Assembly (NCBI GenBank): GCA_964016885.1
Contig: OZ024745.1
Coordinates: 35,836,001 to 35,900,000, forward strand
From: Eledone cirrhosa
Lineage: Eukaryota
Length of the DNA: 64,000 nt
Direction of reading: 5' to 3'
Shown: positions 58,459 through 63,594 of the stretch, one piece after another
Layout: each line of letters opens with the position of its first letter
Position numbering within the stretch: position 1 is the first letter of the stretch
Position numbers and translations under genes: made by a program
The notes under the pieces: generated by a model
Told to the model about the DNA's origin: nothing
Seen by the model: the letters and a program-made list of their open reading frames with translations, nothing else
Databases searched by the model: none

Positions 58459-58741
58459 TATATATATATATATAATAGTAAAAGTAGAAGATCAACGCGA
58501 GCTTTGTGGTTTCGGATAGTTGTCTCTTTATATATATATATATATATAGATTTAGGGTTATGTATGTAATAAAACCTTTTATGGTAATATATTTTTTATA
58601 CAAACTTTAAATAGTGAAAGATAGTCATTAATTACTATCTTATTACCAGTAAGATAAATAGCTCAATGTAATAACATCGTTTGTTTTACAGAGCAGTTAT
58701 ATAGAGATTACAATAATCAAAGTTCAGTTTAAATCATTTAT

Positions 58742-58790
58742 TTGCTTACAATTGTTTCCTCCAAACCGAGGTTTGGATTCTTCGGAGCAA
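58742..58790 (-). ncRNA. Type I hammerhead ribozyme (CCGAAGA core)
   Basis: Exact mirror of 61716-61764. Confidence 0.8.
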
Positions 58791-61715
58791 CTATTTAGTG
58801 ATCTATAACATAATTGACCTCCTTTCCAACACAAGAGACATATAAAACATATGCACATATTGATCCACAGTGGGATGACATCCATCAAAATGATATAGCA
58901 TGGCAATTTACATATAAAGGTTAAAGGATAAAAATAAAAATAAAAATATAAATAAAAATAAAAATAAAAATAAAAATAAAAATAAAAATAAAAATAAAAA
59001 TAAAAATAAAAATAAAAATAAAAATAAAAATAAAAATAAAAATAAAAATAAAAATAAAAATAGAAATAAAAATAAAAATAAAAATAAAAATAAAAATAAA
59101 AATAAAAATGAAGCATTGGCAGTCTATGAAGATAAAGCAAGAGGAAAGTTTAGAGTAGTCAGTGCATGAAACAATCTCACGTGTAGCATGCACGTGTGTC
59201 TTATTTTTACAGGATTAGAGTGCGTCAGAATGTTATTTGCAGGGTCAGGCAGTTGAAGCAGGCAATCGATATTATTATGTGGGCTGAATTATTAAATCAT
59301 TTATTCGCATACACCTGTATGATATACAGTCCCGAATGTAGAGAAACACCAAAATATCAAAAATTTCAAACATATAAACCGTATTATATCGTAGGCAAAA
59401 CAGTACCACTGTCTTCGCGCACACCACCACTCACATAATCCATGAGACGCAATATATAGAACACGGGTCTATCATATAATTCACGATGGTTCAGCATATA
59501 ACCAAGTTATAAACCGTATCTTGTCGATTCTTAATTAATAGATCATGTTGTTTAGTTTGGTGTGATGATATTATATTCCGGAAGTGTCTGTATGACCAAG
59601 GGGAATTAATGCGTAAGGGGAGGTAACTAGCTGGTTTTCTTAGTTAAATTTATTATCCTAAATTACATTAATGGTGTTTCAAATAAATGCCTATCAGTTG
59701 ATGTTATAACTAATTTCTAGATTATGTTACTTATTTATAGGTTACAGTGTTGTCTATTAAGAAGTACTAAGTTGTATATATCAGGATGATTACCTTCTAT
59801 TAAGGGGTGTCATATCTGAACATTCCATAAGAGGTGTCAGACCCCCAAATCAATGTTCTTTGTAAATGTAATTCCTCCCGCAGGACCTGGCATGGTCCTA
59901 TTATTATATATGACTGCCGGTAGGCTCTGGGTCATTGTATGTCTGAATCCTTGGTAAATCTGAATATCTTCAGGATGGTCCGGAGATCAAATTTCTCATA
60001 TAAAGACACCAGTCTGGCCATCAAGCAATAGATTACCTACCATCTCATATATAAATTAAATTAGGTATCTTATCTACAAATTAGAGTGGAGTATATTAAT
60101 AGGTACTAAAGGAGTTCATATCATGATGATTACAATCTGGAGATCAAATCTCTCATATAAGGACACCAGTCTGGCCATCAAGCAATACATAAACTCCCAT
60201 CTCACATATAAATTAAGATAGGTATCTTATCTACAAATTAGAGTGGAGTCTATTAATACGTACTAAAGGGGTTCATATCATGATGATTACAATCTAATAT
60301 GGAGTGCCACACCTGGGCAATCTATAAGAAGAGTCAGACTACAAAATTAATTATATGGGTCTCACTACTAATAATGGTCTTATTATCATACAAGACTCCC
60401 GGCAAGTTTCAGGTCATTGTATGACTGCATCCCCGGTAAACTCACCAGGGTGGTCCGGGGGCCAGTTCTCTCATCAAAAAATACCAATCAGGTCACCAAG
60501 CAACACAGAAACTCCTAACTCATGTATCACCTGTGCATAATTCATTGAACTGATCGGATAGAGTATATATACACATAACAATAAGATTACCTACTTAATC
60601 ATCAATCTATCTCATGGTGGCATTCCATGCACAGGATTATGTTATCACAACCAATACCGTGTCTACAGTTTATATTAAACATATATTTGTGCAATGCAGT
60701 TTAAGTAGTCCACGGCCGAGATATCAGAATTAGAAGTACATGGGGGTATCCCCAGGGTAGATGGTACTAAAATGCTGCCAGTATTACCCTTAGAGTATAA
60801 ATTAGTTATAACATCATATGATAGGCACTTATTTGAAACACCATTAATGTAATTTAGGATAATAAATTTAACTAAGAAAACCAGCTAGTTACCTCCCCTT
60901 ACGCATTAATTCCCCTTGGTCATACAGACACTTCCGGAATATAATATCATCACACAAAACTAAACAACATGATCTATTAATTAAGAATCGACAAGATACG
61001 GTTTATAACTTGGTTATATGCTGAACCATCGTGAATTATATGATAAACCCGTGTTTTATATATTGCGTCTCATGGATTATGTGAGTGGTGGTGTGCGCGA
61101 AGACAGTGGTACTGTTTTGCCTACGATATAATACGGTTTATAATATGTTTGAAATTTTTGATATTTTGGTGTTTCTCTACATTCGAGACTGTATATCATA
61201 CAGGTGTATGTGAATAGATGATTTAATAATTCAGTCCACATAATAATATCGATTGCTTGCTTCAACTGCCTGACCCTGCAAATAACATTCTGACGCACTC
61301 TAATCCTGTAAAAATAAGACACGCGTGCATGCTACACGTGAGATTGTTTCATATACTGACTACTCTAAACTTTCCTCTTGCTTTATCTTCATAGACTGCC
61401 AATGCTTCATTTTTAATTTTATTTTTATTTTTATTTTTATTTTTATTTTTATTTTTATTTTTATTTTTATTTTTATTTTTATTTTTATTTTTATTTTTAT
61501 TTTTATTTTTATTTTTATTTTTATTTTTATTTTTATTTTTATTTTTATTTTTATTTTTATTTTTATTTTTATTTTTATCCTTTAACCTTTATATGTAAAT
61601 TGCCATGCTATATCATTTTGATGGATGTCCATCCTCTGTGGATCAATATGTGCATATGTTTTATATGTCTCTTGTGTTGAAAAGGAGGTCAAGTATGTTA
61701 TAGATCACTAAATAG

Positions 61716-61764
61716 TTGCTCCGAAGAATCCAAACCTCGGTTTGGAGGAAACAATTGTAAGCAA
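61716..61764 (+). ncRNA. Type I hammerhead ribozyme (CCGAAGA core)
   Basis: TTGCT-CCGAAGA-aTCCAAACctcgGTTTGGAg-GAAA-CAATTG-TA^AGCAA: 5-bp stem I, 7-bp stem II and palindromic stem III. Confidence 0.8.
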
Positions 61765-63594
61765 ATAAATGATTTAAACTGAACTTTGATTATTGTAATC
61801 TCTCTCTCTCTCTCTCTCTCTCTCTCTCTCTCTCTCTCTATATATATATATATATATATATATATATATATATATATATATATATATATATATATATATA
61901 TGCATGGTACCATGGGCCCAGCACTATATGTCAATAATTGTCACAAGCGTAGTGTTTGTACCAGAGTTTTCAAGTCGCTGGCTGGACTAAAAAATCACAC
62001 TTGTTCAGCGCATCGGTAGGGGTTCTCCTACATGAATATAACGTAGTGGCCATACTCGAAAACAAGTTAGCAGCCACCATATATATATATATATATATAT
62101 ATATATATATATATATATATATATATATATATATATACCTAAAGATTGTGAGAGAGAACAAGAACCAAATAATGTATAGAGGAACGCAAAAATAGATAAA
62201 TGAATGACAAAAGAAAAACCAAGTAATATAAAAATATCTATTTACAAAAACAAAAAGAGAAACACAATCAGAATGACAGACACGGAACTGAAACGAAATG
62301 AACGAATGAAATGAATAAACAGAAGGAAGAGCTTACGTGTAGACGAGTTGGTAGTGGGTTGAAGAAAATCTAAAGAAAAACTATACCCATATATATATAT
62401 ATATATATATATATATATATATATATATATAAGCGGGAGGCAGACTAATACTTATGAGCTAGACATTCTGAGATCAAAAGATTTCTAGTGTAGTCATGTA
62501 GATTTGAACTTTTGTTTTTATTGTCAGCGTTTATGCAATGTCTTTTTCCGTTGTATGTGATATCGTCACGAACATTGATATCATAAATACTATTGCTAAG
62601 TCAGTATAACACCAATGTCTATTGTATATTGTGCTTACTGTATTCGCAATATGTTTATTTTGTGGATTTATATTATTCAAATCACATTCGTGTATTTATA
62701 TTTACATACAGTATCACGTAGCAAGAGGTAAAGACACGTACATACAAAAACCTAAGAAGAAACGCATGCACATACACATGTTTACTTGTAAATTAATGTA
62801 TTTCCATTTCAGTCATCGTATGTACACACAGACAGAGACACAGATAAAGACGCAGACATACACACATATGTGTGTATGTTTGTGTGTGTCTGTGTCTCTG
62901 TTTGTGTGTGTGTGTGTGTGTATGTGTGTGTGTGTGTGTGTGTGTGTGTGTGTGTGTGTGTGTGTGTGTGTGTGTGTGTGTGTGTGTGTGTGTGTGTGTG
63001 TGTGTACAAATATACATGCTTATTATAATAGATATTTTGAATGTATATCTATCTATTTAGATAACCGAAAGATTACAAACTCTTCTCTCACTTTATATCA
63101 ACACACCCGAAGTAACTCCTACTTCGTCTCCCCTCTCCCCAATCATATTGGAGGAGTGAATAAAATAGAAAGGGTGAGAAAATATTTGCGTATGTGTGTC
63201 TGTGTTGTATTTTGGTAGTCGCCTGGGCTGTCTGGTGTTCGGTGCCAAACAATACTTCCTCGCATGTAAGGTGACGTCAATGTACATCAGATAGGCTAGT
63301 TGTTCAACTATGACGCGCAAACATCACACACATTTCATCATAGGCTCGTTTCATGGAGGCTAATCTGTAGCTAAAGATCTAAGACGTAAACTCCTAGAAA
63401 TATCAGCCAAGTTCTCCGAGATCATAATGTAATGTGATTAACTAGGGAAGAACAAATTGGTAAATGTCATCTTATATCTACACAATATATATATATATTA
63501 TAAATATAAGCTATCGTCGTATTTTGACTAAAAAAAATTATTTAGCCTGATAGTGGGGTTAAGAACCCTCGGAGAAATGGAAAAAAGATGAGTA

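Follow-up and report, generated by a model that had tools for sequence, protein, structure and literature searches.

A hammerhead-bearing palindrome in Eledone cirrhosa read as a fold-back insertion of a coding Hydra-clade Penelope-like element

We analysed a stretch of 64,000 nucleotides (the window) from contig OZ024745.1 of Eledone cirrhosa (assembly GCA_964016885.1, positions 35,836,001 to 35,900,000), which contains a palindrome at 58548–61803 with a hammerhead ribozyme motif in each arm. The palindrome is very probably a single insertion of a coding Penelope-like element (PLE) of the Hydra clade, formed by two 5′-truncated copies of its 3′ untranslated region (3′UTR) lying head to head in a (TA)n microsatellite. 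The 2.2 kb sequence from which it is built is, judging from longer genomic copies, the 3′UTR of this coding element.

The palindrome and its coding relatives

The inverted repeats occupy 58703–59719 and 60796–61803 and their arms are 97–98 % complementary, with differences at 18 of 836 positions and 3 gaps outside the satellite. The left arm is longer by 155 bp and reaches 58548. The tailed copy (58548–60795, minus strand) is a 2.25 kb 5′-truncated copy of the 3′UTR and the pseudo long terminal repeat (pLTR), beginning 77–83 nt past the stop codon of the open reading frame (ORF) as measured on four full-length copies. It comprises the one-sided tail (58548–58702, minus strand; about 170 nt in the family), which here lacks roughly its last 16 nt including a terminal AGTAT/ATACT hairpin, and the spacer (59720–60795, minus strand), the single-copy upstream part of the 3′UTR. 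The short arm (60796–61799, plus strand) is a 1.0 kb 5′-truncated inverted copy that stops at a fixed short end, and the two copies meet at 60792–60800 with an overlap of about 4 nt. The left flank is a (TA)n target microsatellite (58529–58547). On the right, the arm passes into (CT)20 (61800–61839, plus strand) and then the target microsatellite (AT)31 (61840–61901), a feature on which the initial annotation was silent.

A descriptor scan of the whole window found one type I hammerhead with the core CCGAAGA (U4C) per arm, at 58742–58790 (minus strand, first core C at 58785) and at 61716–61764 (plus strand, first core C at 61721). The predicted cleavage site of the right one, after 61759, is separated by 40 nt from 61799, where the element ends. 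Internal repeats are a (TTTTTA)30 array in the 3′UTR (58928–59109, minus strand; (ATAAAA)30 on the plus strand), a (TTTTTA)28 array in the right arm (61409–61578, plus strand; listed also as (ATTTTT)28), and two spacer duplications, a 157-bp tandem pair at 59982–60295 (92 %) and an older one of about 300 bp (67 %). The initial annotation had already described the 1 kb fold-back arms with internal tandem repeats, the twin CCGAAGA hammerheads, the 40 nt to the short end and the asymmetric tail, and all of these were confirmed. We found no ORF above 100 aa in the palindrome besides satellite read-through, and a Pfam scan of 7 of its 29 listed ORFs gave 0 matches.

The TTTTTA interval ranges from 6 to 537 nt across 100 family copies and is probably dispensable, as it is short in many intact copies. 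In the sense direction it reads as repeated UUUUUAU, the consensus of the cytoplasmic polyadenylation element, and in antisense as repeated AAUAAA.

A first look at the 3.0-Gb genome gave 867 candidate matches for the spacer and 4,295 for the 3′ end, of which 40 each were scored. We then used 20 longer stretches around the best spacer matches and 37 around matches to the 5′ end of the ORF. In 18 of the 20 longer stretches the sequence runs on 5′ of the end of the window copy, adding up to 2,615 bp which encode a protein of up to 827 aa with reverse transcriptase (RT) and GIY-YIG endonuclease (EN) parts. Among the 37 stretches, 11 copies had uninterrupted ORFs of 816–827 aa, with pairwise ratios of nonsynonymous to synonymous differences (pN/pS) of 0.22–0.75. 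The tandem unit has a period of 4,697 bp and the stop codon is separated from the short end by 1,550–2,524 nt (50 copies). The initial annotation had proposed an element with at least 2 kb of ORF-less template, asked for the consensus to be extended 5′ and named a long 3′UTR of a coding PLE as the outcome speaking against it. The extension was made, and the proposal is abandoned because longer copies continue for 2,615 bp into the RT and GIY-YIG ORF.

The protein had 274 homologues at ~30–46 % identity, mostly of ~700 aa, with best E-values of ~1e-160. Many of them carry the precomputed domain PF26215, and the one informative name came from Argonauta hians. The ORF of the element is ~120 aa longer than most homologues by means of Asn-rich inserts. 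Its motifs are of the Hydra type, namely RVRWR, HADKT (DKT), CxCX5C (CNCRSNRTC), CxxC (CNLCLLE) and CxH (LNKKSE...CQH), with the EN at the C-terminus; in one copy (L071) the third C is replaced by F. Compared by eye, the protein matches the published rows of Hydra-1_Obim and Hydra-1_Ajap. The Naiad/Chlamys type, with N-terminal EN and no hammerhead, was ruled out by the C-terminal EN and the presence of the hammerhead, and a selenoprotein reading was dropped as intact ORFs have no in-frame stop.

Two other young families have 82 % (family B) and 43 % (family C) protein identity to the window family. Their 3′ regions are ~1.5 kb in both, so the long 3′UTR is a mark of this lineage. The 3′UTR is alignable across subfamilies, inherited, and lengthened by internal duplication. 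No long ORF is common to 12 aligned 3′UTRs, and therefore they are unlikely to hide a second gene.

These copies also bear on the possibility that the palindrome belongs to a non-autonomous, ORF-less PLE derivative, similar to a retrozyme, with its own 2 kb template and moved in trans. The window copy indeed has no ORF, the nearest longer copies are frame-broken, and animal retrozymes have been described as PLE derivatives (10.64898/2026.07.22.740005). Nevertheless, 36 of 40 full or near-full spacer matches begin at or near the first base of the spacer, adjoining ORF sequence is present in 18 of the 20 longer stretches, the 5′ ends are scattered, and instead of tandem short monomers we found a monomer of 4.2–4.9 kb that is coding. 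Even a defective master for this one subfamily would still be an element of the coding type. We therefore consider an ORF-less derivative very unlikely.

Two fixed ends, head-to-head junctions and CT runs

Copies of the family end 3′ at one of two fixed positions: the short end lies ~40 nt past the predicted site of hammerhead cleavage and the tail end another 171 nt along, and nearly all ends of both kinds abut (TA)n. Outward-facing end pairs consist of one short and one tailed end in 38 of 39 cases. Either arm can be the longer one. The 5′ ends lie at scattered positions, with a difference of 0–4.3 kb between the two arms. Of the 44 head-to-head junctions, 21 overlap, 2 are blunt and 21 contain inserts, and another 41 junctions are tandem and run into the ORF (partial tandems forming pLTRs). 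The tail measures 171 nt in the window family and 166 and 90 nt in the two related families. Published PLE tails are of 30–40 bp, a difference of size and not of kind.

An inverted truncated copy or pLTR with a one-sided tail has been published for PLEs (PMC8557442, PMC3846280), and a PLE protein in vitro cuts and extends both target strands, with two internal starts bounding the tail (PMC11167929). The layout is thus mostly the ordinary PLE layout. A Foldback- or miniature inverted-repeat (MITE) type DNA transposon with long terminal inverted repeats would also account for tandem repeats inside inverted arms of 1 kb, yet here arm lengths and junctions vary at every locus, the ends are asymmetric by rule, the identical sequence forms direct tandem repeats around the RT ORF, and there is neither a fixed terminal repeat nor a defined target duplication. 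We regard such a transposon as extremely improbable; the preference of the initial annotation for a PLE-type signature over Foldback was borne out.

Within one fold-back, the two arms usually resemble each other more than they resemble other copies and have rare variants in common. This fits one source element, although gene conversion could give the same picture. For the window copy the comparison is ambiguous, with 20 differences in 804 sites, 8 of them at common polymorphisms. An origin of the arms from two different source elements is in general unsupported, as arms share rare variants.

Two observations concern individual loci. At one locus (L051:5418 and 9451) the sequence going outward on either flank is (TA)n-TGTTTGAG-(TA)n, with further shared sequence later, which resembles an inverted target duplication or an insertion into the middle of a palindrome; this was seen at that one locus only. 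At four others (L079:912 and, on the minus strand, L116, L113 and L128) the last 8–11 element bases are duplicated close to or right at a short or tail end, a pattern that abortive starts with re-priming would be expected to leave.

The short end can carry a CT run, in the window (CT)20 where the template has only (CT)2, so that an addition at the time of initiation is suggested. Internal short-end sites had (CT)2 in 78 of 84 copies and never more than two units. Among 52 terminal short ends, 32 carried (CT)4–55, 20 had two units or fewer and none had three. Runs of at least three units were therefore confined to terminal sites (32/52 against 0/84, Fisher p ~1e-17), at loci picked by similarity and not by CT count. 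Genome-wide we counted 358 ends with at least 4 CT units and 336 exact internal sites, and the tail did not resume after the CT run in any of the first 30 of the 358 ends. Sister family B, whose template lacks the CT pair, had such ends in 0 of 14 cases.

We believe that the CT runs probably originate by stutter of the RT at initiation, because they are terminal-only and missing where the CT template is missing. It is rather unlikely, in our view, that they pre-existed in the target or grew after insertion by replication slippage beside the long (TA)n. Compounds of the (CT)n(AT)n type are common in the genome apart from the family (10 of 41, plus two more), and microsatellites are unstable here, as the TTTTTA interval illustrates. 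A pre-existing run, however, predicts (AG)n at the opposite end, seen in just 2 of 39 and 0 of 6 pairs, and stepwise growth predicts many ends with three units. Moreover, internal sites with the identical CTCTATATA never expand, and neither sister-family ends nor tail ends beside equally long (TA)n gain CT. Slippage may still have lengthened the runs once they were seeded. Searching the literature for slippage or telomerase-like addition in PLEs or retrotransposons, we found nothing for PLEs; subscription papers were outside of this search. In long interspersed nuclear elements (LINEs) of the L2/CR1 type, tandem repeats at the 3′ end arise by slippage at initiation. The two cases are alike in the variable number of short terminal repeats at the first-copied end, but the template is here internal, of two units, and in a PLE, a group that is sister to telomerase.

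The U4C hammerhead and the paired hairpins

The right hammerhead consists of stem I UUGCU/AGCAA, the core CCGAAGA, a 7-bp stem II and the palindromic stem III ACAAUUGU. It has type I architecture, with three stems around C3-N-G5-A6-N-G8-A9, G12-A13-A14 and NUH, and an A.G mismatch at position 10.1/11.1, which is unpaired in 120 of 122 copies. As the element matched neither a ribozyme nor any further RNA family of Rfam at gathering and E<=10 thresholds, the identification leans on motif anatomy and conservation. Out of 144 matches, the 122 parsable cores all read CCGAAGA, and the other 22 were truncated, deleted or point-mutated; the suggestion in the initial annotation that the variant predates the insertion thus agrees with its presence family-wide. 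With a 31-nt pattern open to C or T at position 4, the genome gives 4,354 exact matches, and C stands in 99 of the 100 listed. The contigs of a related organism (one sample) showed no common change at this position. Hammerhead searches which require CUGA miss more than 4,000 copies in one genome.

Between the window family and family B, the hammerheads are identical at 49 of 51 nt, against a fourfold-site match of 67 % and a UTR that mostly can no longer be aligned. The stem III palindrome ACAAUUGU is replaced in family B by another palindrome, ACAGCUGU, and family C has a canonical core and a third palindrome in stem III. A dimer model with palindromic stem III has been put forward for metazoan PLE hammerheads (PMC4209133), and these palindrome-to-palindrome changes fit it. 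The distance from the short end to the cut site is 41–45 nt in all three families.

The U4C change is a known viroid variant that lowers cleavage in vitro while infection is still possible (PMC3088659). Protonated C can substitute for U in the U-turn (PMC4105743), and U-turn mutants of another hammerhead had low activity in a scan (PMC9901934). In the three families upstream pLTRs cross the predicted cut site in 36 of 43, 18 of 22 and 19 of 21 cases, suggesting that most templates either stay uncut or are rejoined, irrespective of the core. There was no pile-up of 5′ ends at the cut site in any of the three, the few rows there being tail ends, and the idea that cleavage sets the 5′ ends of insertions is thus unsupported.

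It is possible, though on balance doubtful, that the U4C hammerhead has ceased to cut and is retained as a landmark which marks the short start site by binding protein or by setting a distance. The weakened cleavage in vitro (PMC3088659), the low activity of U-turn mutants (PMC9901934), the unpaired 10.1/11.1, the read-through without pile-up and the constant spacing to the short end would all suit such a landmark. On the other hand, the catalytic residues and the palindromic stem III are conserved, the palindrome being kept through the change to ACAGCUGU, read-through is equally frequent in the third family with its canonical core, the U4C viroid is infectious (PMC3088659), and protonated C may stand in for U (PMC4105743).

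The two fixed ends share one more feature. The sequence AACTGCTC occurs exactly twice per 4,697-bp unit, once past each fixed end, and each copy leads into a hairpin closed by GCUC:GAGC, an arrangement kept in sister family B. These AACUGCUC-led hairpins start a few bases beyond both fixed ends. In the window, the TAACTGCTC box with its hairpin lies just 3′ of the short-end position (58661–58699, minus strand), and in tandem copies the second one comes after the tail end. In family C, hairpins of the form RCUC:GAGY occupy the equivalent places, 5–11 nt past each end.

From these elements we propose how a fold-back might arise. The element enzyme would nick both target strands and one cDNA would start from each nick. 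The RT-endonuclease, possibly as a dimer, would bind the two GCUC:GAGC hairpins in a longer-than-unit transcript. One target strand would serve as primer at the short-end site, ~40 nt beyond the predicted cut of the hammerhead, and the other strand at the tail site, which is 170 nt farther along. Slippage of the primer on the UCUC template of the short site may add 4–55 CT units before processive synthesis. Both cDNAs would end early and be joined via a few bases of microhomology or filler. The hammerhead would fold, its palindromic stem III probably pairing two copies into a dimer, and cut slowly or late, which we propose because integrated copies usually read through it.

We also put forward tentatively a bolder version, which we rate a little below an even chance. 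An EN-bearing PLE RT would perform telomerase-like repeat addition on a two-unit UC template, primed by (TA)n at a site defined by the hairpin, and would in this way seed hundreds of (CT)n(AT)n. The duplicated AACUGCUC hairpin would direct two subunits to two starts, and it is proposed that each fold-back therefore has one short and one tailed end. The weakened U4C hammerhead would be a slow switch or a ruler.

Several points weigh against interpreting the palindrome as a fold-back insertion of a coding PLE, or against parts of the route just described. Expression, cleavage and start sites are read from DNA ends. Pfam and PDB sequence searches with the full ORF gave no significant RT or GIY-YIG match, so that the naming leans on motifs and published alignments. 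The longer copies nearest to the window copy (L045, L049 and L055) have broken frames, and the intact ORFs were seen in subfamilies ~91–94 % identical. The (CT)n(AT)n compounds found away from the family count here as well. We found no paralogous empty site among the loci examined, and the contigs of the related organism did not cover the chosen flank. The minimum-energy fold of the hammerhead monomer differs from the hammerhead fold. Finally, covariation in the hairpins is thin: in a 9-sequence alignment, both partners have changed in 3 of the 68 predicted pairs, and the GCUC:GAGC pairs show no variation.

Known systems and neighbouring elements

The Hydra clade was described as having a C-terminal EN, RWK and DKT motifs, a CxCX5C linker, CxxC, CxH, hammerheads and insertion in (TA)n (Craig et al. 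2021, PMC8557442). The window family has the C-terminal EN, RW and DKT motifs, CxCX5C, CxxC and CxH around conserved E and N, no CCHH, and (TA)n insertion, and it resembles the clade in its single ORF with RT and C-terminal GIY-YIG, the type I hammerhead near the 3′ end and the inverted 5′-truncated copies. The hammerhead is in the expected place, but with a U4C instead of the canonical core; in the published Hydra hammerhead table all 36 rows have CUGA, against CCGA here. Its unpaired 10.1/11.1 recalls published members, which often have U.U, and Hydra-1_Obim, from which the family is distinct, also stops 36 nt past its cut site (counted by eye). Hydra elements are said to be below 3 kb, a generality rather than a diagnostic feature, which the 4,697-bp period exceeds. 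The unit of 4.2–4.9 kb compares with 2.1–2.7 kb for complete published Hydra consensuses (PMC8557442), and the 3′UTR of 1.55–2.5 kb with published elements that are 2–3 kb as a whole.

Poseidon of Anolis carolinensis (Frangieh et al. 2024, PMC11167929) is similar in that two internal RT starts define the tail and both target strands are cut and extended, and its hammerhead is dispensable for insertion in vitro. It differs in the tail of 30–40 nt, against ~170 nt here and 90 nt in the third family. Both sites lie here upstream of the start codon and not within the ORF, and the start sites have TA-rich homology to the target. The main text of that study does not report variable CT additions and the word "slippage" has 0 occurrences in it.

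Penelope elements of Adineta vaga (PMC3846280) share the inverted pLTR with an optional tail and the Asn-rich ORF inserts. Pen1_Av also has a spacer of 0.9–1.5 kb between the ORF and the 3′ pLTR; that spacer is described as captured host DNA differing between copies, whereas the one of the window family is inherited. Metazoan PLE hammerheads (PMC4209133) likewise have a stem II that is long, a short stem I and, in stem III, a palindrome that suits dimers, but the core variant published there is U3-A8. U4C is known from a viroid (PMC3088659); here the change is fixed in two families, in thousands of copies across the genome. An octopus repeat study of 2026 gives 31 PLE families and its main text mentions neither Hydra nor hammerheads (PMC13282606), and the window family may already be named, for instance in Repbase or Dfam.

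Further features were noted in the window. Between (TA)n runs at 41330–41560 there are back-to-back canonical CUGAUGA hammerheads (cores at 41410, minus strand, and 41504, plus strand), which form a small fold-back stub of another PLE family, and single canonical type I motifs are located at 42341 (plus) and 48368 (minus). A 304-aa open frame at 45503–46414 (minus strand) resembles the thumb region of another PLE-type RT. At 63497–63990, a pair of tRNA-like sequences (63596–63666, minus, and 63871–63941, plus; at the Rfam tRNA gathering score) lies in a 154-bp inverted repeat and is likely a head-to-head pair of tRNA-derived short interspersed nuclear elements.

Elsewhere in the genome we came across two very young Hydra-type families (loci L098–L117 and L118–L137) with ORFs of 819 aa and 809 aa, many near-identical intact copies and tandem periods of ~4.2 and 3.9 kb, which are likely active in this genome. 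An uninterrupted 898-aa ORF with apurinic-endonuclease and RT motifs, of a LINE of the CR1/L2 type, lies beside a family copy (L057:6634–9330, minus strand). A tandem array with a unit of ~515–550 bp was found on contig C15 (loci L172–L176), and its dispersed copies also begin in (TA)n.

The supposed new ORF-less element is removed by these results, and what remains of value is mechanistic. The 3′UTR of 1.55–2.5 kb, the 170-nt tail and the U4C core fixed in two families are unusual; the long UTR, the long tail, the fixed U4C core and the CT stutter are modest additions to the known Hydra-clade layout. No RTs are closer to telomerase than those of PLEs. The young and abundant family described here offers two precisely mapped ends, 170 nt apart, with a shared cis-box past each of them, and a sister family differing just at the stutter template provides a natural control for repeat addition and two-strand priming.

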